A stretch of 64,000 nucleotides of DNA from a virus (IMGVR_UViG_3300025536_000015); one strand, 5' to 3'; positions 16,007 through 34,028 are shown, counted from the first letter of the stretch. A program made the numbers and translations. The notes: a model not told the origin generated them from the sequence alone.

Positions 16007-16507
16007 ATGCCGAACGATAAAGCGCCGGACTACACGACGAAGACCACGCGGCCGTGGGGCCACTTCCGACTGCTCGACCAAGGCCCCGGCTTCATCGTCA
16101 AAGCCATGCTGGTCAAAGGCGAGCAGCGCCTGAGTCTGCAACGGCACACGCATCGCGAGGAGCGCTGGACCGTTGCCATGGGGAACGCGGTCGCCACTGT
16201 TTCAGGGGTGAAACACGCGCTCGCTGCCGGAGACTCGGTTGTGATCCCGCGTGGTGCCGCGCACCGCCTGGCCAACCCCGCCAAAGAGCCGCTCATGGTT
16301 GTCGAGGTCTGGCTCGGCAACGACCTGCGCGAGGACGACATCGAGCGCCTCGAGGACGACTACGGACGCGTCGAGTTCGCCAAAGGTGGCGTGATCAGTG
16401 GCCCCCCCAAAGACATCAAGATCGGCAACGGCGAGAAGGAGCACGTTGTCCCGCTCAAGGAGACGAAGCACATCGAAAAGCACCCTGGCGGAAGGAACTG
16501 GGAATGA
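16007..16507 (+). CDS. Mannose-6-phosphate isomerase type II (ManC C-terminal) cupin with extra C-terminal motif
   Basis: RPWG...LSLQRH.HREE.W...HRL.N...VEVW.G..L.EDDIERLEDDYGR. Confidence 0.88.
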   Translation: MPNDKAPDYTTKTTRPWGHFRLLDQGPGFIVKAMLVKGEQRLSLQRHTHREERWTVAMGNAVATVSGVKHALAAGDSVVIPRGAAHRLANPAKEPLMVVEVWLGNDLREDDIERLEDDYGRVEFAKGGVISGPPKDIKIGNGEKEHVVPLKETKHIEKHPGGRNWE

Positions 16508-16734
16508 ATCCCCCAGAGGATAGTCGCTTCCAGTACGCGCACGGCCTGGTCTGGGACCGCGAGACCGAGCAGGGCGTGCCGCGCGCCAAGAACAACCCGC
16601 CGTCCTGCGACCGCGTCGCGGCGCTTTCGTGCTGGACGCCGAAGCCAAGGGTGATGCACGTCTACCGCCTACCAAACGGCCAGCACGTCTGGCAATGGGA
16701 GCCGCAGCCTCCCGGCGGTCAATATGCCCGCTGA
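16504..16734 (+). CDS. Hypothetical protein
   Basis: ATGA-coupled ORF. Confidence 0.45.
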   Translation: MNPPEDSRFQYAHGLVWDRETEQGVPRAKNNPPSCDRVAALSCWTPKPRVMHVYRLPNGQHVWQWEPQPPGGQYAR

Positions 16735-17887
16735 TCTGCCAGACGACGCGATAAGAATCCGCAACCTCTACCCGGTCATGAAGTGCGACCGCTCGGTGTG
16801 GAAGCGGATCATTGCTCTCTGTCGGAAAGGCGACGAAGCCAGCGTGTCCGCGGCCGAGGACCTGGCCAAAGCTTGCACCTCGAGGACTACGCGAACGCGC
16901 GCGCTACACATCGGCGCTCTCCGCAAGCGCGTTATGCGCCGTGCCTTCCTAGTCCAGCAGAAGCGCGATGAGCATGTCACGGCGGACGCGCTGCGCACGC
17001 TGGCCGACCGCGCGGACACGATCTTAAACCGATACGGGAAAACCGGCGCCATTCCTTCGAACCGATATCCGTCGATCGTAAGAGACCTATCCGATCGGAA
17101 CAAAGAGGCCTACGCGACCATTGCTCAGGGCTTCCAGGCCGCTCTCCGGGCCGCCGTCAAAGTGGGCCTCTCCCACTCCATGCAGAACGCGGAGGCCGTT
17201 GTAGCCCACGCCAGAGGCAAAACCACTGAGCAGGAATGGGCTGACCTGGAGCTTGTGTACCGATCCGGCTGCTACGTCTACGTTCCGCTTGACGAGGCCG
17301 ACCCTCTGAACCAGCAACTGACCTACGCGCCGAGCAGCAACGTTTTCAAAAAGCTGTTCAAAGGCGCGCTCAAGGACACGATGACGGCAGGGCTGTTCGG
17401 CAAGAGCAAGCGCGTTTCGAGCAGGGTCTGGGACCTGCGCGGCCAGAACATGGCGCAGATGAAGCGACTCGTGTCCGGCGGCATCGCCCGCGGCGAAGAC
17501 CCGGCCACGATCAGCCGCGCCATTCGGGGCCTACTCGTCCAACCGAAGACCCTGCGCGGCGCGGCGCGCGCTGATGCGACGCCAGGCGCTGGTTCATACA
17601 GGTCAGCCTACGCCAACGCCATGCGCCTCACGCGCACCGAGACCAACCGCGCCTACATCCTATCCGACACGATCTTCGCCGACAAGAAGGGCTGGAATCT
17701 GATCTGGCAGGTCAGCGCCGGCCAGCGCGAGGAGGACGAGTGCGACGACTTGGGTGGCAAGGAGATGACCCCGGAGGAGTTCGCTGACAATTATCCGCAA
17801 CATCCGCAGTGCTTGTGCTATTCAATTCTCGCGCCGAAAACGGAGTTCGATAGCCCGCTTTCGGACACGCCGGCGGACCCCGAATGA
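16724..17887 (+). CDS. Head morphogenesis / minor capsid protein (SPP1 gp7, Mu gpF-like)
   Basis: RLTRTETNRAY...W...ECDDL...PQHPQCLC. Confidence 0.8.
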   Translation: MPADLPDDAIRIRNLYPVMKCDRSVWKRIIALCRKGDEASVSAAEDLAKACTSRTTRTRALHIGALRKRVMRRAFLVQQKRDEHVTADALRTLADRADTILNRYGKTGAIPSNRYPSIVRDLSDRNKEAYATIAQGFQAALRAAVKVGLSHSMQNAEAVVAHARGKTTEQEWADLELVYRSGCYVYVPLDEADPLNQQLTYAPSSNVFKKLFKGALKDTMTAGLFGKSKRVSSRVWDLRGQNMAQMKRLVSGGIARGEDPATISRAIRGLLVQPKTLRGAARADATPGAGSYRSAYANAMRLTRTETNRAYILSDTIFADKKGWNLIWQVSAGQREEDECDDLGGKEMTPEEFADNYPQHPQCLCYSILAPKTEFDSPLSDTPADPE

Positions 17888-17907
17888 TGCGTCAAAAAGC
17901 AGTCAGG

Positions 17908-18037
17908 TCTAATGGATTGGAAGTCGCATATACGCGAGTTCCAATGGGTTGGATATCCAATGGGTTGGACAAACAGTCCAATGGGTTGGATATTTCGCCG
18001 CCCCCTATAAGGTACTTAAAGACAATTTGTAAAGACA
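17908..18037. repeat. Second copy of origin elements: iterons TCCAATGGGTTGGA (17940, 17956, 17977; degenerate 17908) plus 35/37-nt copy of the AT-rich tract
   Basis: Iterons are the reverse complement of those at 555-604; 18001-18037 matches 615-651 in direct orientation. Confidence 0.88.
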
Positions 18038-18071
18038 TGGTAGACAACCGCCCCCGCTTTTTAGAAAAAAG

Positions 18072-18239
18072 ATGAACAACAGCATATGCCAAGTCAGCGG
18101 TAAGATCATGCACGCGACCGCAGCGGCTGCGCACCGCCATATTCCGCGGAGAGGCGGCAAGCGAGAACGCGGCACGGCCTACCGTTGCGGCTACTGCCAC
18201 CACTGGCATACGACCTCGAGCATGACATCTCGATCATGA
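18072..18239 (+). CDS. Small zinc-finger protein (not in ORF track)
   Basis: CQVSGK...AYRCGYCHHWHTTS. Confidence 0.55.
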   Translation: MNNSICQVSGKIMHATAAAAHRHIPRRGGKRERGTAYRCGYCHHWHTTSSMTSRS

Positions 18240-18240
18240 C

Positions 18241-18444
18241 ATGACCGGCTACGAGCGCGACCCGTTGGTCAAGTGCGCACGTCAGCGACCAGTGTGCGGC
18301 CACACTCGCCGCGAGCACGGCAATGGGAAATGCTTCGGCGTGACCTTCGCTGTTGGCGTGGCCGGCGACTGCCACTGCAAGGGGATGATGGAGCCGCCGG
18401 ACCCAGCGCGATTTGCACGCGAAGGCGAGAGAGTTGACGAGTGA
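18241..18444 (+). CDS. Small Cys/His-rich protein
   Basis: CGH...EH...C...C.C. Confidence 0.45.
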   Translation: MTGYERDPLVKCARQRPVCGHTRREHGNGKCFGVTFAVGVAGDCHCKGMMEPPDPARFAREGERVDE

Positions 18445-18458
18445 TGACAAAAATATAT

Positions 18459-18488
18459 TTGCGTTGCGAACTGCCCGCATGGTATAAA
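18459..18488 (+). promoter_or_regulatory. Candidate promoter TTGCGT-N18-TATAAA
   Basis: Extended -10 TGGTATAAA; AT-rich upstream; 30 nt before the SDR start. Confidence 0.55.
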
Positions 18489-18517
18489 CTTCCCAACATG
18501 ATCTACAAAGCCAGCTG

Positions 18518-19513
18518 ATGCGTGCGCTGATCACCGGAGCAAACGGATTCGTTGGTTCCCACCTCATTGAGCATCTGATTTCAATCGGCGCTGAAGTCCA
18601 CGGCACGATCAGATCATTCCGCAGTGACCTCTCCAACCTGGCGCACATCGATCCCGTCACGTATACGATTCATTTTTGTGACATCACCGACGAAGTGGCG
18701 ATCACTGATCTCGTCGCGCGATTGATGCCCACGCACATCTTTCACCTGGCCGCGCACTCCTACGTGCCGACGTCTTGGGACGCGCCGCACGCAACGATCG
18801 ACGCGAACATCAAAGGGACGCTAAATCTTCTTGAGGCGGTGCGCCGCAGCGCACCTGGGGCGCGAGTCCAGGTGGCCGGGTCCAGCGAGGAGTATGGCCG
18901 CGTCGAAGCGCACGAAGTACCCATCGCGGAATCGCAGCCGCTGCGCCCGCTCTCGCCTTACGGCGTGTCGAAGGTCGGGGCTGAGATGTTCGCGCTGCAA
19001 TACGCCGCCAGCTACAATTTACATGTGATCGTCACACGGTCGTTTAACCACACCGGCCCGCGCCGCGGGAAGGTCTTCGCCGAAAGCGACTGGGCGAGGC
19101 AGGTCGCGCTCATCGAGGCAGGCTTGCAAGAGCCTGCCATTATGCACGGAAATCTTGACGCGATCCGCGACTACACCGACGTCCGCGACATTGTGCGCGG
19201 CTACGTCATGGCGATCGACAACGGACAGACCGGTGAGGTCTACAATCTCTGCTCAGGATCCGATGCGTCCCCGACCATGCGCCAAGTTCTCGACAACCTC
19301 TGCGCGCTCGCGCACGTCAATGTGACGAAGGTGCAGGACCCGAAGCGCATGCGTCCGTCGGACGTTGCGCGTTTGGTCGGCAACGGGATGAAAGCCCGTC
19401 TTGCTTTTGGATGGGAGCCGAGCATTCCGCTTGCGCGAACTTTGGCCGACCTGCTACAGTATTGGCGATCGACACTGCACGCCACAGGGTCGAAGATTCC
19501 GGAGCCTGCTTAG
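18518..19513 (+). CDS. GDP-mannose 4,6-dehydratase/Rmd-like extended SDR
   Basis: GANGFVG, HLAAHSYV, GSSEEYG, YGVSK, FNHTGPRR, GNLDA.RDYTDVRD. Confidence 0.88.
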   Translation: MRALITGANGFVGSHLIEHLISIGAEVHGTIRSFRSDLSNLAHIDPVTYTIHFCDITDEVAITDLVARLMPTHIFHLAAHSYVPTSWDAPHATIDANIKGTLNLLEAVRRSAPGARVQVAGSSEEYGRVEAHEVPIAESQPLRPLSPYGVSKVGAEMFALQYAASYNLHVIVTRSFNHTGPRRGKVFAESDWARQVALIEAGLQEPAIMHGNLDAIRDYTDVRDIVRGYVMAIDNGQTGEVYNLCSGSDASPTMRQVLDNLCALAHVNVTKVQDPKRMRPSDVARLVGNGMKARLAFGWEPSIPLARTLADLLQYWRSTLHATGSKIPEPA

Positions 19514-19520
19514 GAGCCCT

Positions 19521-20765: not shown

Positions 20766-20842
20766 AGATCAATCCGCAGCTGCAAGGCGTCCCCCCCGAG
20801 TCACGCCGCCGGGGACATCTGAAGTACGGAGGAATCTGATTT

Positions 20843-21790
20843 ATGGCCCAGAAGAAAGAGAACCGCGCCTGCTCGGCGGACAGCATCCAACTCATCCCCA
20901 AGGCGTCGACCGACATCTCGTCGGGCGACGTCGTGGTCATGGCTCGCAAGAACGACCCGATCAGCCTCTCGGCTCTCGGGCCGGCCGGGCGCGTCAGCCC
21001 GATCGCCGCGGCCCGCCAGGGCCAGTGGTGCGTCGGCGTGGCCGATAACGTCTTCACCTCGGCCGTGGTCGGCGCGACGGACTACGCCACCCCGGACGCG
21101 GACAACAAGATCAACGTCCTGCGCGAGGGGCAGTTCTACCTAGCCCTCTCCACTGCGGCTGGCAAGGCCGGCGACGCGGTCGTCTACGCGTCCGGCGCGT
21201 CCGGCGCGCAGCTGTTCGCGATCGACAACATGCGCCAGGGCTATGCGGTGGCGCGCGTGGTCAGCGACTTCTCGGGCGCCTCGTCCGGCGACCTGCAGCT
21301 GTGCGAGTTGATCCTCAAGCCCACCGGCGGGCCTGACGTCGCGCACTGGCTCGAGAACCGAGTGGTCAACGGCTGCGAGGTCTTGCTGCACGCCGCGCCC
21401 GGATCGCAGGTTAAGGTCGGCCACAACACCGGCACGGTCGTCCATAAGAACCTCGTGCTGATCCAGAACGCCATCAAGTCGATCGCCCAGGACGTGACGC
21501 TCGCGTTCGGCGGCGTCGGCTCTGCAGCGGCGTCCACCATCCGGTTCAAGTGGGTCGTGGCGCGCTCCGGATCATTCGCCATCCGCTCCGGATCCGGAAG
21601 CAAAGCCGCGTTGGCCTCCTACACGGTGGCCGGCGTGACGGCGGGCCTGCTCGCGCCTGTCACGATGACTGCCGGGGAGATTCCGATCGCCCTGCTGATC
21701 CAGTTCAGCGCGGCAACCCAGTCGGCGGCGCGCATCAAGAACATCCGCGGCCTCGGCGTCGTGCCCCGCGTCGGTTCTTGGGGCATCTAA
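20843..21790 (+). CDS. Head decoration/cement protein (DUF2190-like) with C-terminal extension
   Basis: ISSGDVV...GVAD...REGQF...AGDAVVY; position after scaffold. Confidence 0.5.
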   Translation: MAQKKENRACSADSIQLIPKASTDISSGDVVVMARKNDPISLSALGPAGRVSPIAAARQGQWCVGVADNVFTSAVVGATDYATPDADNKINVLREGQFYLALSTAAGKAGDAVVYASGASGAQLFAIDNMRQGYAVARVVSDFSGASSGDLQLCELILKPTGGPDVAHWLENRVVNGCEVLLHAAPGSQVKVGHNTGTVVHKNLVLIQNAIKSIAQDVTLAFGGVGSAAASTIRFKWVVARSGSFAIRSGSGSKAALASYTVAGVTAGLLAPVTMTAGEIPIALLIQFSAATQSAARIKNIRGLGVVPRVGSWGI

Positions 21791-21803
21791 GCATTACCCG
21801 TAA

Positions 21804-21835: not shown

Positions 21836-21874
21836 GTCTTCGTATCGACGATGCGACGAAAAGGAAAAACGGAA

Positions 21875-22861
21875 ATGTCTGATCTCTCCGAGAAGGCGAA
21901 GCAGGTGTCCTCGTTCATGGACTCGTGCGCCAACGAAAAGACGATCGAGGCGCGCGCCGATTCTTGGCTCGCCAACGTGACGGCCAATCGGCCTCACTTC
22001 CTCACCCCCAACCCGCCCCTGCTCGGCCTGACCGCCTTCGTGGTCGCGGCCGGCCCCTCTCTCCGCAAGAACGTCAAGGCGCTCAAGACCATCGGCCGCA
22101 TGGGCGTCATCGTATGCGTGGACGCCGCCTACCGATATCTGGTTGAGCAGGGCGTCACGCCCGACTACTGCGCCACGATTGACGCCGACACGCGCATGGT
22201 AACGATGATTGAAGGAGTGGATACGTCCAAGACTACTCTTGTCGCGCAAGCCTCCGCGAGCCCGGCCCTCATCAACGCGTGGCGCGGCCCGAAGTATTTC
22301 CTGCGCGCCACCGGCGGCTCTAGGGAGCTCGACGACAAGCTGCACGCGGCGCACCGAATCGTCAAGGCAAAGCGCGCCATGCTCCCCGGCGAGGAGATCG
22401 ACCCTGTCGCAGACGTCGAGGTGGTGTTTGCCGGCCTCAACGACGCGCTCGCCTGCGGCGGCAACGTGACGTCCTACGCGCATGTCTTCGCCCTCTCGCT
22501 GCTCCGGGCCACGAAGGTAGTCTTCGTCGGCGCCGACTACGCGTGGCTCGACGACAACGACTTCTACGCCGGCGGCGCCCACCAGAAGCTAGCCGCAGAG
22601 CGCATGTCCGGCGAACAGATTCTCTCCCACAGCGGCCTCGGCGGCGCAGAGAACGCGACGAACTTCACTCTCTTTCACCTGAAGTCGTGGCACGAGGAGA
22701 TCGCCTCCGCGCACCCCGGCCACTGCGTCAACGCGACCGAGGGCGGGATCTTGGGCGTCGGCAAGAAAGGCAACACCCTCGTTGGCTGGGAACACTTGTC
22801 TCTGGCGGACGCGGTCGCGAAGTATGCGCCCACCTGCGCGCGGGAAGCTGTCACGGCATGA
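21875..22861 (+). CDS. DUF115 (Maf/MptE-like) protein 1, putative nonulosonate transferase
   Basis: VAAGPSL, VCVDAA, PDY..TID, GGNV, VGADY, NATEGG. Confidence 0.8.
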   Translation: MSDLSEKAKQVSSFMDSCANEKTIEARADSWLANVTANRPHFLTPNPPLLGLTAFVVAAGPSLRKNVKALKTIGRMGVIVCVDAAYRYLVEQGVTPDYCATIDADTRMVTMIEGVDTSKTTLVAQASASPALINAWRGPKYFLRATGGSRELDDKLHAAHRIVKAKRAMLPGEEIDPVADVEVVFAGLNDALACGGNVTSYAHVFALSLLRATKVVFVGADYAWLDDNDFYAGGAHQKLAAERMSGEQILSHSGLGGAENATNFTLFHLKSWHEEIASAHPGHCVNATEGGILGVGKKGNTLVGWEHLSLADAVAKYAPTCAREAVTA

Positions 22862-23709
22862 GCCCCATGATCGCCCCTGACGTAAAAGAGGTCCTGGCCA
22901 ATCGTGGCCACGCATCTGCTGCGGCCCACAAGGACCGCTGGTCGCGTCACGCCGCGGCGAACAAGGGCCGAATTGTCTTCCAGGTGTCGCGCCTCTGGTG
23001 CGACGTCAACCCGAAGACCGGCGTGCTGATCGCCGCCGGCCCGAGCCTCAAGGACAGCCTCGCGGAGCTCAAGGCGATCGATAGGAACACGCACGAGATC
23101 GTGTGCGTCGACATGGCGCTCAAGTTCCTCCTCGACAACGGCTTGGTGCCCGACTACGTGATCTGCGCCGACGCCTCCGAGGAGATCGCGCGGACGCTGG
23201 TCGCGGCGCCTCCCGAGGTCGCGCTCTTGCTGAACGTCGTGGTCCACCCTGACACCGCGAAGGACTGGGTCGGCGACATCTTCTGGTTCTGCATGATGTC
23301 GAACTACCGCGACAAGGAAGCCAACGACTGGATGCAACACGACCACGCGAAGAAATCCGGAGTCTCCTCGTTTCTTGTCCCCGGCGGCAACGTCTCCAGC
23401 CTCGGCGTCAGCTTCCTCGGCTCCGTCCGGGCCGTTGCGAAGATACTGCTCTACGGACACGATTTTTGTTGGACCGACGACGCCGAGTTCTACGCGGGCG
23501 GCGTCCAGAAGGACCTGGCGGATATTCGCATCAAGACCGAAGCCGACGCAGGCACGGTCATGACTGTGCCCGACAGCCGCGGTAAGCCGGTGAAGACGAC
23601 GGGGAGCCTATTGGCGTTCGCGTCCTGGTACTCCGACATCGCCCGCACCATGCCCGGTCTGCTCGAGTCTCGCACGCCGACGACAATATTATCCCTCGGA
23701 GGAAACTGA
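22858..23709 (+). CDS. DUF115 (Maf/MptE-like) protein 2
   Basis: IAAGPSL, VCVDMA, PDYVICAD, GGNV, YGHDF. Confidence 0.78.
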   Translation: MSPMIAPDVKEVLANRGHASAAAHKDRWSRHAAANKGRIVFQVSRLWCDVNPKTGVLIAAGPSLKDSLAELKAIDRNTHEIVCVDMALKFLLDNGLVPDYVICADASEEIARTLVAAPPEVALLLNVVVHPDTAKDWVGDIFWFCMMSNYRDKEANDWMQHDHAKKSGVSSFLVPGGNVSSLGVSFLGSVRAVAKILLYGHDFCWTDDAEFYAGGVQKDLADIRIKTEADAGTVMTVPDSRGKPVKTTGSLLAFASWYSDIARTMPGLLESRTPTTILSLGGN

Positions 23710-23710
23710 T

Positions 23711-24721
23711 ATGACGATTCAAGAGATGGAAGCCGTAATCAAGAACGGCGACGGCAAGGCCCTCCGCGAGGCCATGACCCGCTCCGACTTCGCTGCCTTC
23801 ATGGCCAAAGGGCTCAAGGGCACGATCATCGACGCGTACTCCCGCGCGCAGGCGCAGACGAACTTCGAGCAGCTCACCGTCGACGAGACGAGCGAGTCCA
23901 ACGAGGAGACCTACCCGACGATGGGCGCGACCGAGCTGCCCCGCAAGGTGCTCGAGGGCGAGAAGTTCAAGACCCTGAACCCCGGCTCGCCGGACACCGT
24001 CAAGGTCACGAACTTCAAGTACGGCGGCATCATCGAGCTGACCAGCGAGGCCTCCGAAGACGACCAGACCCCCGGCAAGACCCTGTCCAAGCAGGCCGCG
24101 GCGCTCGGCTCCGGCCACGCCCGCTACAAGGACAAGGCCTTCTTCTCCATCCTGACGGACAATCCCCCGATCTACGACGGCGGGGACCTGTTCGCGCTCG
24201 ACCACCCCGGCTACACTGGCGGCGCGGCGCGCGGCAGCAACGACAACATCTACACCGCCGTGACGCTCTCGGCTAACGCCCTGGCGACGGTGCTCGGCAA
24301 GATCGCGATCTGGGAAGGCGCCGATGCCGACCAGGACCTCGACATCATGGTCGACGCGCTCGTCGTGCCCGTCACGCTGCAGCCGGTCGCCTTCGGCTTG
24401 ACGCGCGCGGACCTGCTGCCCGTCGGCTACGCTGCCGGCGCGCTCGGGCCGGCGACGAACAACGGCCTCATGCCCAACGCCTTGGGCCTCAAGAAGATCG
24501 GCGTCATCGCCAGCCACCGCCTGGACCGCGCGTCCTTGACGGACTGGTACGTGAAGACGAACTTCCCCGGCCTGATGCACCAGAAGCGCAAGGGTCTCGA
24601 GATCATGCAGGAAGGCCTCGGCACCGGGATGCACTTCGAGAACGGGATGCACCGCACCCGCACCGAGGAACGCTTCGGCGCCAAGATTGTGAACTGGCGC
24701 GGCTTCGTCCTCGTCAGCTAA
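23711..24721 (+). CDS. Major capsid protein (Mu gpT-like)
   Basis: 336 aa; KYGGIIELTSEASEDD, LVVPVTL, RTEERFGA pattern; followed by hairpin. Confidence 0.8.
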   Translation: MTIQEMEAVIKNGDGKALREAMTRSDFAAFMAKGLKGTIIDAYSRAQAQTNFEQLTVDETSESNEETYPTMGATELPRKVLEGEKFKTLNPGSPDTVKVTNFKYGGIIELTSEASEDDQTPGKTLSKQAAALGSGHARYKDKAFFSILTDNPPIYDGGDLFALDHPGYTGGAARGSNDNIYTAVTLSANALATVLGKIAIWEGADADQDLDIMVDALVVPVTLQPVAFGLTRADLLPVGYAAGALGPATNNGLMPNALGLKKIGVIASHRLDRASLTDWYVKTNFPGLMHQKRKGLEIMQEGLGTGMHFENGMHRTRTEERFGAKIVNWRGFVLVS

Positions 24722-26055: not shown

Positions 26056-26811
26056 ATGCGCTATTTCGTCATCCCAGCACGCGCCGGCAGCAAAGCAATC
26101 CTCGACAAGAACCTGGTCGACCTAGGTGGCCATCCTCTCGTCGCCTGGACGATCCACGCCGCCAAGGAAGCTGCCAAGTCCTACGACGGCGCGCGCGTCT
26201 ACGTCACGTCCGAGGACCGCAAGATTCTCGACGTGGCCGAGTCCTACGGCGCGGTCCCGCACCTGCGCCCGCCCCACCTCGCCGACGACCAGGCGTCCAT
26301 GGTTGGCGTCCTCCGCGACTTCTTCCGGATGCACGAAGACGCCCACGAGGTCGTCCTGCTCTACCCCACCTGCCCGTTCCGAATGGCCTCAACGATCAAG
26401 AACGCGATCGCGGCCTTCGAGTCCGGCCCGCTGCACGCCGAGCACGAAAGCCTGATGAGCGTGACCGCCTTCAACGGCCGGCCCTACGGCGGGGTCATGA
26501 TCGTCAACGGAAAGCTCGAGTACGCGGAGTCGGCCGAGGCGTTCTACCGCAAGCAGGACACCCCAAAGCTCTACCACGCCAACGGGGCCATTTTCATCCT
26601 GCGCCGCGGCGTATTGGACAAGCTGAACACCCAGCTGTTCTGCAAGGAGACAGTGCCTTACGAGATATACGGCATTGAACCGCTGGACATCGACACCCCC
26701 TTCGACCTCGAAGTGGCCCGCGCTTGGGTCGCCTCTGGCCGCGCCAAGCTGGCCTTAAAGGACACCTTCACCGTGGCTGAAGGCATTGAAACGATGGGGC
26801 ACGCTCCTTGA
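26056..26811 (+). CDS. neuA: Acylneuraminate (CMP-nonulosonate) cytidylyltransferase
   Basis: IPARAGSKAILDKN, LYPTCPFR, NGAIF, DIDTPFD. Confidence 0.9.
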   Translation: MRYFVIPARAGSKAILDKNLVDLGGHPLVAWTIHAAKEAAKSYDGARVYVTSEDRKILDVAESYGAVPHLRPPHLADDQASMVGVLRDFFRMHEDAHEVVLLYPTCPFRMASTIKNAIAAFESGPLHAEHESLMSVTAFNGRPYGGVMIVNGKLEYAESAEAFYRKQDTPKLYHANGAIFILRRGVLDKLNTQLFCKETVPYEIYGIEPLDIDTPFDLEVARAWVASGRAKLALKDTFTVAEGIETMGHAP

Positions 26812-28448
26812 CCAATACAGGCCAACTTAATCACTTACCTCAAGTCGTTAAGTCGGCCATCAGTTCGAGCCTGCGCGGCCTCAGAGCGATGATTATAAAC
26901 ATGCCCCTGCGCGAGGACGCCCCTCCCAACTGCGCCCCGCTGGGGCCAGCCCTGCTCGCCGCACGACTCCTGCAGCACGAGGCCGACTGCTCCATTGTGG
27001 ACCTCAACGCATACCGGGTAGGACCTTTTCAGCGACACTTGACAGGCGGCGAAGCCATGGGGCTGATCGTCCGGACGGCCCACAAGCACGGCTCGCCGCA
27101 CCTGATCGGTATGGGCGGCATGGTCACGACGCTACGCTGGCAGCGCATGCTGGCGAAGGAACTGCGCCGGATATTTCCCGACGCCATGCTCGTCAGCGGC
27201 GCCGGCCTGGCGACCGAGTTCCGCGCCGGATTGTTCAACTGGATCCCTGAACTGGATGCCATTGTTCATAGCGAAGCAGACGACGTCATCCTGCAGGTAG
27301 GTCAAGATGCGCTTCTATCCCACAAGATCGGGCGAGGCTTGCTGAATCTGCTCGAGCCAAAAGTGTACGCAGGCGACCGCCCTGCCGACCTCGACGCGCT
27401 CCCGCTCCCGGCCTGGGACCTGCTCGCCGCCGACGTCGACGGCTTCCCGGTCCTCGAGACGTACATCAAGAACCAAATCTGGGGCCTCGAGGCGAACAAC
27501 TCGAGCGCCACGCCGTTCAAGATGACGCGATCGCTCAACACCGTTTCTTCGCGCGGGTGCCCGTACGCCTGCAAGTTCTGCTTCCGCGGCGCGCAGGGGG
27601 AGCGTGAGTACGGCGTACGTACAGCCGCGAGCCTGACCCATGAGGCGATGTACCTGCACGAGCGCTACGGCATCGACTTCCTCGGCGTCTTGGACGACAA
27701 CTGCTTGGTCCAAGCCAAGCGCCTCGAGGACATGGTGCCGACCCTCGGCCGCTTCTGCCGCGACAGCGGCATGCGCTGGGGCACGCACGGACGCCTGGAT
27801 GAAGCCGCGGACCTGCGACCGAACGGCTCCGGCGGCTTCGTGCGAGCCGCGCGCCGGCGCACTCAGGCCCTCGCGGAGAGCGGGTGCGTCTACGTTGGAT
27901 TCGGCGCTGAGAGCGCCAGCCCTGCGGTCCTCCTTGCCATGGGCAAGGGAGGCTTCATGCTGGCCAACGGGACCGAAAACGTCGGCGGCTACGACCTGCC
28001 CAAGACCATGCTCGAGGGCTACCGCAACACCGTTGAGGCCGGCCTGCACGGCAACTGCACCTGGATCATGGGCTACCCCGGCGAGGGCCTGCGCGAACTG
28101 CAGCACAGCGTCGCCTTCATCGCCTGGCAGAAGACGCTCCTGAACAACCCGGCCGCCGTCAACAGCCGCATGTTCACCGCGACCGCCTACCCCGGCACGG
28201 AGATGTTCAAGAACCAGAAGGTGCAGGCGCGCCTCGCGCGCGGCTTCGGCCTGTCCTTCGACGCCGCCGGCGAGCCGATCTGCGACAACGCCCTCCTCGC
28301 CTACTGCCTTGAGCTCGACGACGCCACAAAGGTCCTCAAGGACAAGAACGGCGACGACGTCTACTACGGTGACATGACCATGGCGCAGTTCGAGAAGTGC
28401 CGCAACCTGGTAGACGCCGGCAAGACCGAGGAGATCCTGTCCCTATGA
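26808..28448 (+). CDS. Cobalamin-binding radical SAM protein
   Basis: N-terminal PLGPALLA B12-type domain; SRGCPYACKFC; GAES; IMGYPGE. Confidence 0.88.
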   Translation: MTNTGQLNHLPQVVKSAISSSLRGLRAMIINMPLREDAPPNCAPLGPALLAARLLQHEADCSIVDLNAYRVGPFQRHLTGGEAMGLIVRTAHKHGSPHLIGMGGMVTTLRWQRMLAKELRRIFPDAMLVSGAGLATEFRAGLFNWIPELDAIVHSEADDVILQVGQDALLSHKIGRGLLNLLEPKVYAGDRPADLDALPLPAWDLLAADVDGFPVLETYIKNQIWGLEANNSSATPFKMTRSLNTVSSRGCPYACKFCFRGAQGEREYGVRTAASLTHEAMYLHERYGIDFLGVLDDNCLVQAKRLEDMVPTLGRFCRDSGMRWGTHGRLDEAADLRPNGSGGFVRAARRRTQALAESGCVYVGFGAESASPAVLLAMGKGGFMLANGTENVGGYDLPKTMLEGYRNTVEAGLHGNCTWIMGYPGEGLRELQHSVAFIAWQKTLLNNPAAVNSRMFTATAYPGTEMFKNQKVQARLARGFGLSFDAAGEPICDNALLAYCLELDDATKVLKDKNGDDVYYGDMTMAQFEKCRNLVDAGKTEEILSL

Positions 28449-28819
28449 GCAAACGCATCTCTGGCGTCATATTCGACGAGGCCAACGTGGGGTGCCGCGT
28501 CCATCGATCATATGCCGATACCTCCGGAACCGGTTTGCAGTTGTTGCAGGCCGGTGTGCCCGGCAAGTGCATCCGCATCCTGGCCGGCCTGCTGATGTCG
28601 TCGGGGGAGTGCGCGGTCTATTTTGCGTCAGGTGCTCAGGGATCAAAGAAAAGCGGCACATACCCGCTGATCGTCAACCAGGGCTTCAACCTCAACAAGG
28701 ACGACGACGGCCACTTTCAAACCAACAAGGGCGAGGGCCTCTACATCAACCACGGCTCGTCGACAACGCTCGGCGTTACGTTTCGATTCATACTGACTGA
28801 AGTTGAGGACCCCATATGA
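28445..28819 (+). CDS. Hypothetical protein, possibly virion-associated
   Basis: ATGA-coupled ORF. Confidence 0.55.
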   Translation: MSKRISGVIFDEANVGCRVHRSYADTSGTGLQLLQAGVPGKCIRILAGLLMSSGECAVYFASGAQGSKKSGTYPLIVNQGFNLNKDDDGHFQTNKGEGLYINHGSSTTLGVTFRFILTEVEDPI

Positions 28820-29067
28820 TCAAGAAAATAGTCGGACGACTGCTCGGAACGGACCGGCCGTCGCCGAACTACTACCACGAGTGCATGGTCCAGTCGGGCG
28901 CCGATAAGTTCGGACGCTTTCCCTGGACCGTCCGCGTGTACGGACGCGTCGGCTCCGGGCCTGTTGAAGTTTTGGAAGGGTTCGAGGTATCGCACGAGAA
29001 GGCCAAGAAGGTGGCCTACGCAGCAGCCGTTAAGGTCGTGAAGGCCAAGGAGGCCGCATGGCGATAG
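28816..29067 (+). CDS. Hypothetical protein
   Basis: ATGA-coupled ORF. Confidence 0.5.
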   Translation: MIKKIVGRLLGTDRPSPNYYHECMVQSGADKFGRFPWTVRVYGRVGSGPVEVLEGFEVSHEKAKKVAYAAAVKVVKAKEAAWR

Positions 29068-29459
29068 GATACGCGACGACGCTGCGCAACGCACGGCTCG
29101 ACCAGATCAAGACGGCGATCGACGCAGGGGCCGGGGCTGGCCTACTGCGCTTCTATGACGGGTCTCGACCGGCCACCGGCGGCGCCGCCACTACGCTGCT
29201 CGCCGAACTGACCATGTCGGATCCGTCCGCTGGCGCGGCCTCTGGCGGTGTTCTAACTCTCAGCGCCATCACGGCAGACTCGAGCGCGAACGCGACCGGC
29301 ACTGCGACGTGGGCGCGCATCGTAGACTCGACCGGGGCCTTCGTCCTCGACTGCTCCGTCGGCACGTCTGGCGCGGACATCAACCTTAACAGCGTGGCCA
29401 TTCAGGTCGGCGCGCAGGTTAGCATCACGAGTGCTACGATCACTGAGGGGAATCCATAA
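29058..29459 (+). CDS. Conserved phage virion-type protein
   Basis: RNARLD...LRFYDG.RPA...LLAEL...ATGTATWARI pattern of phage structural proteins. Confidence 0.65.
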   Translation: MAIGYATTLRNARLDQIKTAIDAGAGAGLLRFYDGSRPATGGAATTLLAELTMSDPSAGAASGGVLTLSAITADSSANATGTATWARIVDSTGAFVLDCSVGTSGADINLNSVAIQVGAQVSITSATITEGNP

Positions 29460-30140
29460 ATGGCTGCTCCTATCGACGCAATAATCACACTGCCGGATGA
29501 TTCTGGCAACACCGGAAAGAAAGTCAGAACGCAGACCGAGGTCGTCGGAGCCAACACTGTTCATACGCATTACTTCGTGATGCAGAGGGCGAAGAAGGTC
29601 ATCACGACATATCGACTCGCGCTCGTCCAGGCGACCGTTCTTGCGTCTGCGCAGAACGGAACGACGGCCGGAATGCTGTTCGGTCACATGGGCTCTGCTG
29701 TCAGCGGCAAGGCGATGAGGATTCGAAGGATCGGCGTGTCCTCTCAGCACTCAACTGCTCTTGCCACGCCGACGGCACCGCGCCTCCTCATCCGACGATT
29801 CACATCATCCGGGGCGCTCAACACGTCGTTGATTTCCCCAAACACAAACGACTCAACGCAGACTGCTCCCGCTGCGCTGTTCTCGTTGGTGAACACTGGA
29901 TGCACCGTAGTTCATGTCGGAATAGGCTTTGCCCATGCAGCTCTCGCTGGTGCTATAACCGCCGTTGGTGCCTACGAGCCGTGCGATAAGGACATGATTG
30001 ACCCAGCGGCAGAAGAAGACGCGTGGCCAGTATTCCGTCCTGGCGAGGGCTTCGTGATATACCAGGACGTAGCCGGGACTACCTCGGACACGCGCAAGTT
30101 CAATATCGAGATCAGTTGTGATGAGATCGACATCGCCTGA
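29460..30140 (+). CDS. Hypothetical beta-rich virion-type protein
   Basis: Coupled ORF; lower GC than neighbours. Confidence 0.6.
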   Translation: MAAPIDAIITLPDDSGNTGKKVRTQTEVVGANTVHTHYFVMQRAKKVITTYRLALVQATVLASAQNGTTAGMLFGHMGSAVSGKAMRIRRIGVSSQHSTALATPTAPRLLIRRFTSSGALNTSLISPNTNDSTQTAPAALFSLVNTGCTVVHVGIGFAHAALAGAITAVGAYEPCDKDMIDPAAEEDAWPVFRPGEGFVIYQDVAGTTSDTRKFNIEISCDEIDIA

Positions 30141-30143
30141 TGA

Positions 30144-31073
30144 ATGGCCTGGGAACTAAACGACGTCGCGCCGGTATCGATTGGGCAAGAGTTCTCAGCC
30201 CCTGCATCGCCGTGGACGGAGCAGGGGTGGTTCCTCGGCTACTCCATGCCAACCGGAGGAGCCCCGCCAATTACCGGCACGTTGGCGGTGTCTCTGGCAG
30301 CCGACACGTCATCGGCGTCTGGCAAGGAAATATTTACCGGATCAGCGGCACCGACATTATCCCCAGACGTCATGGCCGGAGTCGGGAAAGAGGTCTTCTC
30401 TGGGAGCGCTTCGGCTACTTCAGCCGGCGACTCCTCGGCAGTGGTCGGCAAGTTGAATTTCACAGGCACGTCCGCGCAGACGGAAACAGCGGATGCAATG
30501 GCTGCTACCGGGACCGCTGGCTCGAGCTTCGACGGAACATTAGAGGTTACGAACGACGACGACGCACAAGCAGCGTCCGGGTTGCTGCTGTTCTCAGGGA
30601 CCGCGTCGACGTCGTCTGCGAACGACGCGATGGCCGCCGCAGGAGTGATGAGCTTCTCCGGTTCTTCCGGTCCCACCTTGGGCGCGGACGTGTTGGAGGC
30701 GACAGCTCAACTAAACTTTGCTGGGGCGGAATCGCCGGCGACAGCATCAGACATCTCGTCGGCCTCTGGCCTCTTGACGTTCTCAGGATCGGCGGCGGTC
30801 GCATGCGCTGGGGACGCGCTGACGGCTTCGGGCTTGCAAAGATTTATCGGTGCATTCTCGACAACGAACGAGCCAGACGTTCTGTCGCTGTCCGCGGAGC
30901 TTGGGTTCCGAGGTCCGATGTCCGTGACGCTTTTGTCAGACACGCCGACGGCTGCAGGAAAGGAAGACTTCGTCGGCGTGATGTCCACGACGATGCAGAA
31001 CGACAGCGGCTACAAGCAAGGCATGGTGATCCGCTACAACACCATCATGAACCCGGTGTCGCCTTCAGACTGA
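30144..31073 (+). CDS. 21-aa repeat, Ser/Thr/Ala-rich fibre-like protein
   Basis: About 12 tandem repeats F-x-G-x8-D-x5-G. Confidence 0.7.
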   Translation: MAWELNDVAPVSIGQEFSAPASPWTEQGWFLGYSMPTGGAPPITGTLAVSLAADTSSASGKEIFTGSAAPTLSPDVMAGVGKEVFSGSASATSAGDSSAVVGKLNFTGTSAQTETADAMAATGTAGSSFDGTLEVTNDDDAQAASGLLLFSGTASTSSANDAMAAAGVMSFSGSSGPTLGADVLEATAQLNFAGAESPATASDISSASGLLTFSGSAAVACAGDALTASGLQRFIGAFSTTNEPDVLSLSAELGFRGPMSVTLLSDTPTAAGKEDFVGVMSTTMQNDSGYKQGMVIRYNTIMNPVSPSD

Positions 31074-31074
31074 T

Positions 31075-31296
31075 ATGAGAAAAAAGAGATTGACCTTCGA
31101 GCAGAAACGGGCGTTGTCGATTCAGCGTCAGGCGCGCATCGGCATCACCATCCTGGCGGTGTTGGTGGTCACGTTTATTTACACCGTTCTGTTCAGCGTG
31201 CCGCGAGAACAAGAACCAATGCTATTATTTCCGCCAGGCACGAAAGTGAATCTTGGATTTGGAAAATATCAAACAGGAGGTCATGCTCGCCCATGA
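31075..31296 (+). CDS. Small membrane protein
   Basis: Basic N-terminus plus one transmembrane helix. Confidence 0.55.
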   Translation: MRKKRLTFEQKRALSIQRQARIGITILAVLVVTFIYTVLFSVPREQEPMLLFPPGTKVNLGFGKYQTGGHARP

Positions 31297-31976
31297 CTAC
31301 AAAGAAGAAGTCGTCAAAGTCTGTCACCGCAACGCTCGAGCAGCCGAAGGCCGGCGTGCTGGCCAAAGAGCACGAGGAGCGAATCGACATCGAGCGCACC
31401 GACATTTATCCCGAGGATATGATCAAGCGCCACCGCGAGCGCTACTGCTGGTCAATCTCAGAAATCTCCAAGCGCTTCTGCCGCGCTGGACGCGTACTCG
31501 ACGCAGCTTGTGGGACAGGGTACGGATCAAGCCTGCTCCTCGGCATCTCGAACAAAGTCGTTGGACTTGACGGCGACCACGGAGCTCTTGACCACGCGCG
31601 CAAGCGCTTCGGCGGATCGCTCCTGTCCTTCCGTTGGTCAGACCTGAACCATACTATCGCTGGTAACACCGAGGAGTTCGACGCGGCCGTGACCATCGAA
31701 ACGATCGAGCACTTGCCCGAGGAAGGCGCTCAGTTCTTCCTCTCTGAGCTTCACCGAGTCATCGCCAAGAACGGCCTGCTCCTTATCTCCACGCCAGAAT
31801 TTAACGCCGAGCGCGGCCTGACGTCCACGTTTCACCTGAAAGAGTACACGCCGAATGAGATGATCGCGCTCGTCACGGCGGCCGGATTTGTTGACGTGGT
31901 GCTCTCCGATGCAACGAACATCTGGGTGAAAGACTTGCCCGGCTTCATCTTCCTCAGCGCACGGAAGCCAGGATGA
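31293..31976 (+). CDS. Class I SAM-dependent methyltransferase (type common in glycan clusters)
   Basis: HRERY, VLDAACGTGYGS, ETIEH, LLISTP. Confidence 0.85.
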   Translation: MTTKKKSSKSVTATLEQPKAGVLAKEHEERIDIERTDIYPEDMIKRHRERYCWSISEISKRFCRAGRVLDAACGTGYGSSLLLGISNKVVGLDGDHGALDHARKRFGGSLLSFRWSDLNHTIAGNTEEFDAAVTIETIEHLPEEGAQFFLSELHRVIAKNGLLLISTPEFNAERGLTSTFHLKEYTPNEMIALVTAAGFVDVVLSDATNIWVKDLPGFIFLSARKPG

Positions 31977-33118
31977 GCCGCATTCCACAAGCGGCGCCGG
32001 CCGCCATCGAGATATTTGGCAAGAAGGTCGGCAACGAAGCTGTAACCTTTGCGCAGGCTTCGAACGCTGGCGCGCACCCGTGCCTGATCGTGGCCGAGTG
32101 CGGCATCAACCACGGCGGGGACACGGCCCGCGCCATGGACATGGTCCGCGCCGCGGCCGACGCCGGCGTGGACGTTGTGAAATTCCAGCGGCGCGACCTA
32201 CAGGCGACCTACACGCCCGAGGCGTTCGCCGACCCCAACCGCGCGGCGCACGGCCTGGCCCACTACCTGCCCGTGCTGAAGCAGACGCAGTTGCCGGACA
32301 AGGACTATCCCAGGCTGAAGGCGCTGGCCGAGGCCTTGGGCCTGGGCTTCTTGGTCACTCCGTTCGACGAGCCGTCCGTCGACTTCCTCGAGGCGCTCTG
32401 CGTCGATGCCTACAAGGTGGCGTCGTGCGACTTCAACAACCCGTTCCTGCACGCGAAGATCGCGGCGACCGGAAAGCCGGTGATCGTGTCGACAGGCATG
32501 CAACACGAGATCGCGCTGTTCGAAGTGATCCCGACGCTGAAGGAGATGTTCCCCGGCCGGCTCGCGCTTATGCACACGGTGTCGAGCTACCCAACGGCCT
32601 TCCGCGACTGCCAGCTGCACAGCATCCTGCGCATGAAGATCAACCACGGCGTCCCCGTCGGCTGGTCCGGCCACGAGCGCGGTGTCGCCGTCAGCACCTC
32701 GGCGGCTGCGCTGGGCGCAGACATCATCGAGCGCCACTTCACGCTCGACCGGACCCTGCCCGGCCCCGACCAAGCGGCCTCGCTCGAGCCGGACGGCCTC
32801 AAGAAGCTCGTGGAGCGGATCCGCGCGACCGAGGACGCCTACGGGGACCCGTACTCCACGAAGGTGCCGACGCGCGGCGAGGCGCAGACGCAGGAGATCC
32901 TCGGCAAGAGCCTCTGCGCGCGGCGCGACATCAAGGCCGGTGAGCCCGTCACCATGGACATGCTCGAGGCGAGGTCCCCCGGCCGCGGCCTGTCGCCGTT
33001 CCTCGCCACCTACCTCGTCCGAACGCACGCAGTTATGGCGCGCGACGTCGCGGCCGGTGTACACTTAAGCGCGCAGGACATCGACAAGAAGGTGACGGTG
33101 GGGGCCGGCCCATGCTGA
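31973..33118 (+). CDS. neuB: NeuB-family nonulosonic acid synthase with C-terminal SAF domain
   Basis: IVAECGINHGG, DVVKFQ, YKVAS, STGM, GWSGHE, IERHFTLD..LPGPDQAASLEP. Confidence 0.92.
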   Translation: MSRIPQAAPAAIEIFGKKVGNEAVTFAQASNAGAHPCLIVAECGINHGGDTARAMDMVRAAADAGVDVVKFQRRDLQATYTPEAFADPNRAAHGLAHYLPVLKQTQLPDKDYPRLKALAEALGLGFLVTPFDEPSVDFLEALCVDAYKVASCDFNNPFLHAKIAATGKPVIVSTGMQHEIALFEVIPTLKEMFPGRLALMHTVSSYPTAFRDCQLHSILRMKINHGVPVGWSGHERGVAVSTSAAALGADIIERHFTLDRTLPGPDQAASLEPDGLKKLVERIRATEDAYGDPYSTKVPTRGEAQTQEILGKSLCARRDIKAGEPVTMDMLEARSPGRGLSPFLATYLVRTHAVMARDVAAGVHLSAQDIDKKVTVGAGPC

Positions 33119-33206
33119 CCGACCAAAACAATTTGTCCCGTTCCTCCGGACTGTGGGGGCGTGCCCACGGCGAGGAGGGGCGGGGCATTCGTTTTATGGT
33201 GACGCG

Positions 33207-34028
33207 ATGCTGAACGTTCGCGGCATTAAGGCGCGCCCGCGTGACCTGCACGAGATGATGGCGCACAAGCCGTCGCTCGTCGAGATGCACTGCTCCGTAG
33301 ACGACCTGCTCTGGACGCCGCCGAGCACCTACGACGCGCCGCTCGCCGTCCACCTGCCTGAGTACGACAAAGGCGACCTGGTTGACGCAGCAAGCCTCAA
33401 CGAAACCAAGCGACGCGCGGCGGAAGACCTCTACTGCATGGCTGTCCGCAAAGCCGTCCAGTGGGCTCCGCATTTCGCGAATTGCAAACCGAAAATTGTC
33501 TTCCACCCTGGCGGCATGGACGTCGACGTGTTCACGCAGTCGCAGATAGACGACGCTCGCTCTCAGCTTGGCAGGACGATCGAGTCCATGGTCGCGGCTG
33601 CCGGCAACGAGGCCGACATCCTCATCGAGAACGTGCCTCGCCACTGCTGGTTCTTTGGCGGTGACTGGATCGCCAACCTCGGCGTGGACGTAAAACAGAT
33701 GGCCGAGATTTGCACCACTCACAAGATCGGCATGACCCTCGACCTCTGCCACCTCTACCTCGCGTCGCAGGCGATGAAGTTCGACGTCTCCGAAGCTGTT
33801 TCACTGGTGAAAGAACACGTTCGTCACATACACTATTCAGGAGCGAAGGGCATGGACGGTGAGGGCCTGGCGATCGACGACCCGGCCAACACCTTCGACC
33901 TTGGCTCTGAGCTCCAACGGCTGCGAGACATCGACGCCGTGGCGGTGCCAGAGATATGGTTCGGGCACGAGAACGGCGGTGCCGGCTTCGTGAAGGCGTG
34001 GGCGTCGGCGGAACAGGCACTCGGATAA
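33207..34028 (+). CDS. Xylose-isomerase/AP-endonuclease-2-like TIM barrel protein
   Basis: VEMH, VHLPE, HPGG, IENVP, TLDLCH, HIHYSGAKG..GEGL, PEIWFGH. Confidence 0.75.
   Translation: MLNVRGIKARPRDLHEMMAHKPSLVEMHCSVDDLLWTPPSTYDAPLAVHLPEYDKGDLVDAASLNETKRRAAEDLYCMAVRKAVQWAPHFANCKPKIVFHPGGMDVDVFTQSQIDDARSQLGRTIESMVAAAGNEADILIENVPRHCWFFGGDWIANLGVDVKQMAEICTTHKIGMTLDLCHLYLASQAMKFDVSEAVSLVKEHVRHIHYSGAKGMDGEGLAIDDPANTFDLGSELQRLRDIDAVAVPEIWFGHENGGAGFVKAWASAEQALG

Follow-up and report, generated by a model that had tools for sequence, protein, structure and literature searches.

A predicted late-gene pathway for a non-aminated, methylated KDN-family nonulosonic acid in an uncultured tailed phage

The viral sequence IMGVR_UViG_3300025536_000015 was analysed as a single stretch of 64,000 nucleotides (the window), in which positions 16,007 to 34,028 hold a group of sugar genes set among the late genes of a tailed phage. 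We judge it rather probable that late genes of this phage form a self-contained pathway to a nonulosonic acid that is non-aminated, belongs to the KDN (2-keto-3-deoxynononic acid) family and is activated with cytidine monophosphate (CMP), and the sugar probably decorates the phage's own particle. The chemical steps and the acceptor are what we infer from gene content, clade membership, an active-site signature and gene contexts. An initial annotation of the window had proposed a non-aminated, KDN-like and possibly methylated product. Both qualities have gained support, the first from the clade of the NeuB synthase, the loss of an arginine, the small number of amino-sugar genes nearby and the KDN made by Serratia; the route from mannose-6-phosphate and the 9-deoxy form of the sugar, which were part of the same proposal, remain unestablished.

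The gene set and its conservation

The cupin, the short-chain dehydrogenase/reductase (SDR), the two methylating-type enzymes and the NeuB that the initial annotation had listed were all found in their places on the + strand, which carries every gene of the window. Together with the CMP-nonulosonate synthetase (CMP-transferase) and a triosephosphate isomerase (TIM)-type barrel they make up the following set, in which SAM stands for S-adenosylmethionine:

16007–16507, + strand: stand-alone type II phosphomannose isomerase (PMI) cupin (PF01050, E 7e-30)
18518–19513, + strand: Rmd-like extended SDR, putative GDP-4-keto-6-deoxy-D-mannose reductase (PF16363, E 6e-77)
26056–26811, + strand: CMP-nonulosonate synthetase, a cytidylyltransferase (PF02348, E 3.4e-19)
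26808–28448, + strand: cobalamin-type (class B) radical SAM enzyme (PF04055, E 5.6e-12; B12-binding match weak)
31293–31976, + strand: class I SAM-dependent methyltransferase (PF08241, E 1.7e-13)
31973–33118, + strand: NeuB-family nonulosonate synthase of the TIM-associated clade (PF03102, E 2.7e-69, 233.7 bits)
33153–34028, + strand: Endonuclease-IV-like AP_endonuc_2 ('xylose-isomerase-like') TIM barrel (PF01261, E 3.1e-10)

The reported lack of an aminotransferase, an acetyltransferase and a NeuC-type epimerase was upheld as well. Pfam scans of every window open reading frame (ORF) of at least 100 aa found none of these three families, and six-frame searches of the whole 247-contig assembly to which the phage contig, C72, belongs gave no match on C72 for DegT, Epimerase_2, Hexapep or GNAT. 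PseB, PseC, PseH and PseG were likewise not found on the phage contig, and the window Pfam scans returned neither heptose genes nor a glycosyltransferase able to use GDP-rhamnose.

A core of five enzymes (NeuB, TIM barrel, CMP-transferase, radical SAM enzyme and methyltransferase) is kept across a clade of related uncultured phages, whose NeuB proteins are 72% (L009) or 41–47% (L016/17, L018, L019 and L020/21) identical to that of the window. These phages share a gene order: two Maf-like transferase genes and the capsid gene, then CMP-transferase, radical SAM, methyltransferase, NeuB and TIM barrel genes, and after the barrel a head completion protein gene followed by a third Maf-like gene and the tail tube gene. 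No DegT gene was found in the six nearest phage contigs.

The NeuB synthase and its clade

The phage synthase keeps the hallmarks of its family: K70, Q72, H234, E253 and H255 are invariant in the NeuB alignment, and the metal- and phosphoenolpyruvate (PEP)-binding motifs are conserved. Against the NCBIfam equivalogs it scores below cut-off both for PseI (TIGR03586, 210.9 bits, cut-off 340.25) and for the NeuB/NnaB N-acetylneuraminate/legionaminate synthase (TIGR03569, 280.7 bits, cut-off 399.65). For the phylogeny, reference synthases were assigned to types from the gene clusters annotated around them. Those of Bacillus thuringiensis and of Klebsiella plasmids, accompanied by pseB/C/G/H, served as PseI; those of Rhizobium sp. 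WL3 and of Haladaptatus, found beside LegB, LegC, NeuC and an acetyltransferase, as LegI-type; that of the neuA-neuB-neuC cluster of Moritella viscosa as N-acetylneuraminic acid (Neu5Ac)-type; and one from Azospirillum as amino-type. In a 136-row tree the TIM-fused and TIM-adjacent synthases, the phage NeuB among them, form one clade of 73 rows (SH-aLRT 99), and a careful 59-row tree recovers this NeuB-TIM clade (32 rows, again including the phage NeuB) with an ultrafast bootstrap (UFBoot) of 100 and SH-aLRT of 99. Since all these references fall outside the clade in both trees, the phage enzyme does not cluster with the synthases of pseudaminic (Pse) and legionaminic (Leg) acid, the outcome that the initial annotation, in proposing this phylogeny beforehand as a check, had named as telling against a KDN-type product.

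The clade also has an active-site signature. At the position of Arg314 of the Neisseria enzyme (NmNeuB), in the SAF/AFP domain, all six references have arginine and none of the 69 clade members does; its place is taken by serine in 39 (the phage NeuB included), glycine in 28 and valine in 2. The metal-site motif of the clade reads S-G-H-E-R instead of S-D-H-[ST]. In NmNeuB, Arg314 contacts the N-acetyl carbonyl of N-acetylmannosamine (PMC11339185, citing Gunawan et al. 2005), and this arginine is conserved in bacterial Neu5Ac synthases and missing from mammalian 9-phosphate synthases (PMC11339185). Its loss would fit a substrate without a 2-acetamido group, or one that is bound in another way.

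A well-supported sister clade holds 49 viral NeuB proteins (loci L022–L095, IMG/VR), apparently without the C-terminal SAF/AFP domain. They are often linked to DegT or LegB-like genes, and have Q-K-R and S-G-H-E motifs in common with the TIM clade.

The TIM barrel partner

The initial annotation had made no use of the gene behind neuB, and its barrel product turned out to be more informative than any other part. The barrel gene begins 35 bases past the neuB stop, at 33153, with its true start probably the ATG at 33207. Its product is 26–56% identical to the barrel domains of NeuB fusions, and the closest cellular relatives of the phage NeuB (41–49% identity) are themselves NeuB-SAF-barrel fusions of ~630 aa. 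With a profile of the barrel, relatives were retrieved from 285 species genomes. In the 80 top-ranking loci of the barrel family, to which all our cellular context counts refer, NeuB stands beside the barrel in every one (fused in 68, adjacent in 8), with a CMP-transferase in 60, DegT in 10, NeuC in 2 and PseG in none, and in L010–L014 the module is minimal, consisting of CMP-transferase, NeuB and barrel alone. An N-terminal CBS pair marks a second, longer fusion family, for which at least 7,995 database proteins reach E <= 1e-30; Xanthomonas campestris, Comamonas aquatica, Parvularcula marina and marine Synechococcus are among the bacteria that carry it. When longer proteins with the barrel were sought, NeuB fusions alone came up.

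The barrel profile matches the solved proteins MJ1311 (1e-18), listed as the predicted Endonuclease IV (Endo IV) of M. jannaschii (PMC2770678), M. tuberculosis Endonuclease IV (9e-8), Thermotoga Endo IV (6e-4) and tagatose 3-epimerase (0.01). In the profile match to 5zhz, columns of Endo IV line up with the invariant residues H67, H118, E159, D197, H200, H227 and E267, and a Foldseek search of the PDB with the AF2 model of the barrel (pLDDT 85.7) places Endo IV first, with MJ1311 and sugar (ketose) 3-epimerases within one order of magnitude. We favour a hydrolytic role. Chances are about evenly balanced that the barrel frees the aldose from a GDP-sugar, the step of NeuC, LegG or PseG in known bacterial pathways, a version in keeping with the neighbouring ManC/PMI, Rmd-like and HldE-like nucleotide-sugar genes. 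It is a weaker candidate for taking off the 9-phosphate after condensation with mannose-6-phosphate, as the initial annotation had assumed, and is unlikely to be an isomerase or epimerase.

Several cellular loci place the NeuB-TIM pair beside other sugar genes. A replicon of Ensifer canadensis carries an operon of ManC/PMI, CMP-transferase and a CBS-NeuB-SAF-TIM fusion, followed by glycosyltransferases, and provides an independent link of NeuB-TIM to mannose metabolism; its PMI domain and the phage cupin are of one type. In two metagenome-assembled genomes (MAGs) of Desulfobacterota (L136:3433-14559 and L178:5197-12223), NeuB-TIM is flanked by an HTH regulator and an HldE-like protein of reversed order (nucleotidyltransferase, then PfkB kinase), with a GmhA-like SIS protein beside the fusion in L178 and FliK- and PilZ-like genes beside it in L136; these loci may be flagellin glycosylation islands with a heptose or other NDP-sugar branch. 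On an Azospirillum plasmid that has an amino-nonulosonate cluster, a gene for a 'sugar phosphate isomerase/epimerase family protein' adjoins the acylneuraminate cytidylyltransferase gene (L097:14047-15647). A structure search of the ESM Atlas also found the barrel fold (TM 0.84, 261 residues) in a 674-aa Actinomycetota cluster of the UDP-GlcNAc 4,6-dehydratase (PseB-like) family. At the level of predicted structure this hints at a second kind of fusion of the barrel with an NDP-sugar enzyme, one that the sequence search for longer proteins did not recover. Such a fusion would suit a barrel that frees an aldose from a GDP-sugar.

CMP activation and methyl tailoring

The radical SAM gene follows the CMP-transferase gene with a stop/start overlap, here and in L009, and the methyltransferase stop overlaps the neuB start. 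The radical SAM enzyme may begin at the ATG at 26889 instead of 26808. Its B12-binding match is weak (E 0.0098, under the cut-off), and the corresponding match of its homologue in L136 has E 2.7e-7. We read the enzyme, of predicted class B, as a putative C-methylating tailoring step. Homologues in the related phages are 70% (L009), 48% (L016/17), 44% (L018) and 24–26% (L019–L021) identical, and the methyltransferase is kept in all related phages at 27–74% identity. Both genes lie between the CMP-transferase gene and neuB in five of the five related phage lineages, a conservation that makes the two methylating enzymes part of the core of the module.

An operon of a Desulfocapsaceae MAG (L136) combines NeuB-TIM and a CMP-transferase with a SAM methyltransferase and two B12 radical SAM genes. 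Flagellar genes adjoin this operon, which holds no phage genes and whose radical SAM enzyme and methyltransferase are 35% and 32% identical to those of the phage. Because phage genes are missing from this operon, the methylating enzymes would tailor the sugar rather than virion proteins. Methyl tailoring of the nonulosonate is therefore likely, as far as gene contexts can tell, and the methylated product suggested by the initial annotation is borne out by the conservation of both enzymes in the phage module and in a bacterial NeuB-TIM operon. Fom3, a class B enzyme, methylates a cytidylylated substrate, so that action of the phage radical SAM enzyme on the CMP-sugar is a reasonable guess by analogy. 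One methylated KDN, 5-O-methyl-KDN, is known to occur in nature (cited in PMC9000132).

In the ESM Atlas, the cluster closest to the radical SAM enzyme counts 721 members, 77% of them viral, and this type of enzyme seems widespread in phages.

The PMI cupin, the Rmd-like reductase and a 9-deoxy sugar

Along its full length the stand-alone cupin corresponds to the PMI domain at the C-terminus of type II PMI/GMP enzymes; it is 43% identical to the PMI domain of the Ensifer ManC/PMI over 109 aa, and has intact metal motifs (QxHxHRxExW and HRLANP). The SDR had been described as GDP-mannose-dehydratase (GMD)/Rmd-like, and the second half of this description is the better one. Its best solved relative is Rmd (GDP-6-deoxy-D-lyxo-4-hexulose reductase, 2pk3; 2e-76, 260 bits), whereas GMDs reach at most 144 bits and a bona fide GMD (592 bits, NCBIfam gmd) is present in the candidate host bin. 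The GxxGxxG and YxxxK motifs are present as GANGFVG and SPYGVSK in the 2pk3 alignment, and a GDP-heptose 4,6-dehydratase ranks second among the solved relatives. SDRs 45–48% identical to that of the phage lie directly upstream of NeuB-TIM fusions in six Desulfobacterota MAG loci; this position in six independent loci argues for a functional link between the Rmd-like gene and NeuB-TIM.

The cupin, the Rmd-like gene and the GMD of the host bin might allow a 9-deoxy product. In such a route the PMI cupin and then host ManB/ManC would provide GDP-mannose, host GMD would convert it to the 4-keto-6-deoxy intermediate, phage Rmd would reduce this to GDP-D-rhamnose, the TIM barrel would release D-rhamnose, and NeuB would turn D-rhamnose into 9-deoxy-KDN. 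We hold a D-rhamnose-derived 9-deoxy-KDN made in this way to be a tentative idea. A route via mannose-6-phosphate is likewise hypothetical, and a GDP-sugar route with the barrel as hydrolase fits the gene contexts at least equally well.

Maf-like transferases beside virion genes

Three genes for Maf/MptE-like transferases, all above the PF01973 gathering cut-off of 34.6 bits, lie near or directly before the genes of the two candidate acceptors:

21851–22861, + strand: Maf/MptE-like transferase 1, upstream of the major capsid gene (PF01973, E 1.3e-24, 87.4 bits)
22858–23709, + strand: Maf/MptE-like transferase 2, directly before the major capsid gene, with its ATG start at 22858 (PF01973, E 2e-20, 73.7 bits)
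23711–24721, + strand: major capsid protein, Mu-like gpT, candidate acceptor (PF25209, E 3.2e-13)
35624–36652, + strand: Maf/MptE-like transferase 3, directly before the major tail gene (PF01973, E 2.3e-31, 109.3 bits)
36654–37409, + strand: major tail protein with an Ig-like domain, candidate acceptor (phrog_807, E 6.8e-11)

Transferase 1 has homologues of 36–81% identity in the related phages, where transferases 2 and 3 are also conserved. From gene position, the capsid and tail proteins would be the acceptors of the sugar, and glycosylation of the virion is a direct prediction of this reading.

Proposed pathway and alternative explanations

Taken together, the genes suggest a pathway in five steps. 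The TIM barrel would free a mannose-configured precursor, either by hydrolysing a GDP-sugar or by taking the phosphate off a phosphorylated intermediate; NeuB would condense this precursor with PEP; the CMP-transferase would activate the product; the radical SAM enzyme and the methyltransferase would tailor the sugar; and the three Maf-like transferases would put it onto virion proteins, namely capsid and tail tube. In this phage the PMI cupin and the Rmd-like reductase, the latter acting on the product of the host-bin GMD, may give an accessory push by steering host mannose metabolism towards the precursor.

Several points weigh against this pathway. Maf-family enzymes are known to transfer pseudaminic and legionaminic acid, both of them aminated sugars, and the best NCBIfam match of the CMP-transferase is PseF (120.6 bits, below the cut-off of 205.7). 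DegT-type aminotransferases occur within 8–10 kb in 10 of the 80 cellular NeuB-TIM loci and in the viral contig L061, so some clade members may make aminated (mono-amino) sugars. The near-tie in the Foldseek search means that fold leaves the chemistry of the barrel, phosphoesterase or sugar epimerase, unsettled. The stretches fetched from the related phage contigs L009 and L016–L021 gave no homologue of the cupin or the SDR, and in L019–L021 the homologue of a 454-aa gene comes directly after the MuF gene, without an SDR between; both genes are therefore accessory, and they are tied to the sugar less firmly than the core is. The Serratia NeuB is tied to the phage clade solely by its published domain architecture. 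Finally, the chemistry of the product is predicted from genes alone, and the binned MAG is only a putative host.

Two alternatives concern the nature of the sugar and its precursor. The product could be aminated, a Pse or Leg derivative for which the phage supplies the last steps and the host the diamino-trideoxy-hexose precursor. The Maf-type transferases and the PseF score speak for such a sugar, as do the NCBIfam scores of the SDR, equally near LegB (164.8 bits) and gmd (165.7 bits, cut-off 415), and the binned MAG holds DegT beside an SDR (C208:1-2769, a 2.8-kb contig) and Epimerase_2 beside another SDR (C151:971-5008); many other viral NeuB contigs carry DegT, PseB or LegB. We nevertheless consider it unlikely, given the fully supported place of the NeuB outside the PseI, LegI and Neu5Ac groups, its lack of the N-acetyl-binding arginine, an SDR that resembles Rmd far more than it does any dehydratase, the lack of DegT in the six nearest phage contigs and the missing amino-sugar genes in most cellular NeuB-TIM loci; moreover, the MAG has no NeuB besides that of the phage and thus no native nonulosonate pathway shown to borrow from. 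A more serious contender is a core whose product, made from mannose or mannose-6-phosphate, is plain KDN or an O-methylated form of it, with the SDR and cupin as unrelated morons that could, for instance, alter the host surface or provide another glycan with GDP-D-rhamnose. It agrees with the related phage contigs, which keep the whole core and show neither accessory gene in the stretches fetched, with the distance of the SDR gene from the core, and with Serratia, which makes KDN with neuA and neuB-TIM alone, 5-O-methyl-KDN being a natural sugar (cited in PMC9000132). It sits less well with the Rmd-like homologues directly upstream of NeuB-TIM in six independent MAG loci and with a phage in which no GDP-rhamnose-using glycosyltransferase was found.

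Other substrates for the tailoring enzymes or for the synthase seem less probable still than plain KDN. We rate low the idea that the two methylating enzymes act on virion proteins or some other non-sugar substrate: the weak NCBIfam matches of the radical SAM enzyme are to ribosomally synthesised and post-translationally modified peptide (RiPP) and P-methyltransferase families, its Atlas cluster is mostly viral, and the genes lie among structural genes, but the same pair occurs in a bacterial NeuB-TIM/CMP-transferase operon without phage structural genes, and in all five related phage lineages it is bracketed by the CMP-transferase gene and neuB, with stop/start overlaps. It is very improbable that NeuB-TIM condenses PEP with a non-hexose aldose such as a heptose, giving an ulosonic acid of another chain length. 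In favour of a heptose are the GmhA-like SIS and HldE-like kinase/nucleotidyltransferase genes that flank NeuB-TIM in L136 and L178, and the GDP-heptose 4,6-dehydratase among the relatives of the SDR; the Serratia product, however, is the nine-carbon KDN, the phage has no heptose genes, and the L136 and L178 neighbours could serve a separate glycan. We thus return to a CMP-activated, non-aminated KDN-family sugar as the preferred reading. Its most specific form, an undescribed 9-deoxy, C- and/or O-methylated KDN analogue derived from GDP-D-rhamnose, released by the barrel and attached by Maf-like transferases to capsid and tail tube, is speculative, and we would not expect every part of it to hold.

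The phage genome and other viral NeuB genes

The first 55,764 bases of the window are contig C72 (65,649 bp) of a 3.09-Mb assembly. The first 58 bases of C72 are repeated at its end, and the window wraps at 55765, with bases 55765–64000 corresponding to C72:59-8294 and ~1.6 kb of the phage (C72:8295-9885) lying outside. Given this 58-bp terminal overlap and the wrap, the window represents 64 kb of a circular 65.6-kb element, and the phage genome is complete and circular. Pfam and PHROG scans identify the replication and recombination genes of a tailed phage (replication protein O, RusA, DNA methylases, RecT and a helicase), its head genes (small and large terminase, portal, MuF-like protein, major capsid and head completion proteins) and, on the tail and lysis side, the major tail protein with its Ig-like domain and an amidase. 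The 18-kb stretch had no Megablast match among GenBank phages, and hence the sugar region resembles none of them at the DNA level.

Two further features were considered as parts of the pathway and rejected:

7073–7798, + strand: PNKP-type haloacid dehalogenase (HAD) phosphatase, stand-alone, without kinase domain, early region
29058–29459, + strand: virion structural protein (phrog_3758)

The HAD phosphatase, the only HAD protein present, was set aside as a KDN-9-phosphate phosphatase, being of PNKP type, located in the early region and without homologue in the related loci; near it are genes for a MazG-like pyrophosphohydrolase (5590–5994) and a DUF5131 protein (3688–4668). The ORFs between the radical SAM and methyltransferase genes (28397–31078) were examined as hidden enzymes, and one is the phrog_3758 virion protein and the rest belong to no family and are unconserved. 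This block has a third-position GC below that of its neighbours and is unconserved in relatives, with an OmpA-like gene at this place in L009.

An alignment-based scan of IMG/VR yielded at least 83 viral contigs with a confirmed NeuB homologue; single-protein scans of IMG/VR with the NeuB and with the SDR gave no match, and tblastn of NeuB against GenBank phages gave three matches only, at ~30% identity. Among 50 viral NeuB contigs, many of them fragments, 2 carry both TIM barrel and DegT, 11 the barrel only, 13 DegT only and 24 neither. The overlap is below expectation, not significantly (Fisher p = 0.29), so this count does not show mutual exclusion of barrel and DegT.

Implications

What is new here is a phage-borne NeuB-TIM pathway of the KDN family with methylating enzymes, Maf-like transferases beside virion genes and perhaps a 6-deoxy branch. 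We found no paper on a phage particle decorated with a nonulosonate, nor on the function of the NeuB-linked barrel. If the virion does carry a 9-deoxy, methylated KDN, the nonulosonate would be new and the particle the first of any phage to be coated with one. Nonulosonic acids shape how immune systems, lectins and other phages see cells, and possibly viruses. The NeuB-TIM family is very large and almost unstudied, with Serratia KDN as its sole functional anchor. The case joins this family, radical-SAM and SAM-dependent sugar tailoring, and phage capture beside capsid and tail genes, and the compact, co-transcribed phage gene set offers a way into the function of the barrel, the product of the NeuB clade and the identity of the methylated sugar.

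Comparison with known systems

Serratia is the only characterised system with the NeuB-TIM architecture. In the KL1/KL2 capsule of S. marcescens, neuA and a neuB with an extra COG1082 domain are the only nonulosonate genes of the locus (Anderson et al., PMC9000132), and the strains make KDN at ~20:1 over Neu5Ac in a neuB-dependent manner (PMC9000132). Serratia and the phage both have a CMP-transferase, a NeuB domain and an AP_endonuc_2 (sugar-phosphate-isomerase-like) barrel, a likeness of described architecture, and both loci are without aminotransferase, acetyltransferase and NeuC; the Serratia product is non-aminated. In the phage, by contrast, the barrel is a separate gene, and the set is extended by the B12 radical SAM enzyme, the methyltransferase, the Rmd-like reductase and the PMI cupin. 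The Serratia sugar goes to the capsule, whereas the phage has Maf-like enzymes beside virion genes for its transfer.

In the KDN-9-phosphate synthase/HAD phosphatase pathway of Bacteroides thetaiotaomicron and in the human Neu5Ac/KDN-9-phosphate synthase, a NeuB-family enzyme likewise joins PEP to a mannose-type substrate to give a non-aminated nonulosonate. The mammalian 9-phosphate synthase, like the phage NeuB, is without the N-acetyl-binding arginine (PMC11339185). The phage module differs from the Bacteroides pathway in having no linked KdsC-type HAD phosphatase, and the Endo-IV-like barrel stands in its place. Our NeuB trees were drawn up without the Bacteroides and human synthases and the Serratia NeuB.

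With the Pse/Leg flagellin islands (PseBCHGIF or LegBCHGIF plus Maf) the phage has in common a NeuB-family synthase, CMP activation and Maf/MptE-like transferases, which in those islands act on abundant structural proteins; the sugars that the islands make are 9-deoxy. Unlike the islands, the phage is without dehydratase, aminotransferase, acetyltransferase and NDP-sugar hydrolase, and its synthase lies outside PseI and LegI. The GDP-D-rhamnose pathway of Aneurinibacillus thermoaerophilus and Pseudomonas aeruginosa (GMD plus Rmd) is matched by the 260-bit Rmd-like reductase of the phage and the true GMD of the host bin, but no rhamnosyltransferase is evident in the phage. The Rmd-like homologues that adjoin NeuB-TIM fusions in some bacteria suggest instead that the 6-deoxyhexose may feed the nonulosonate.

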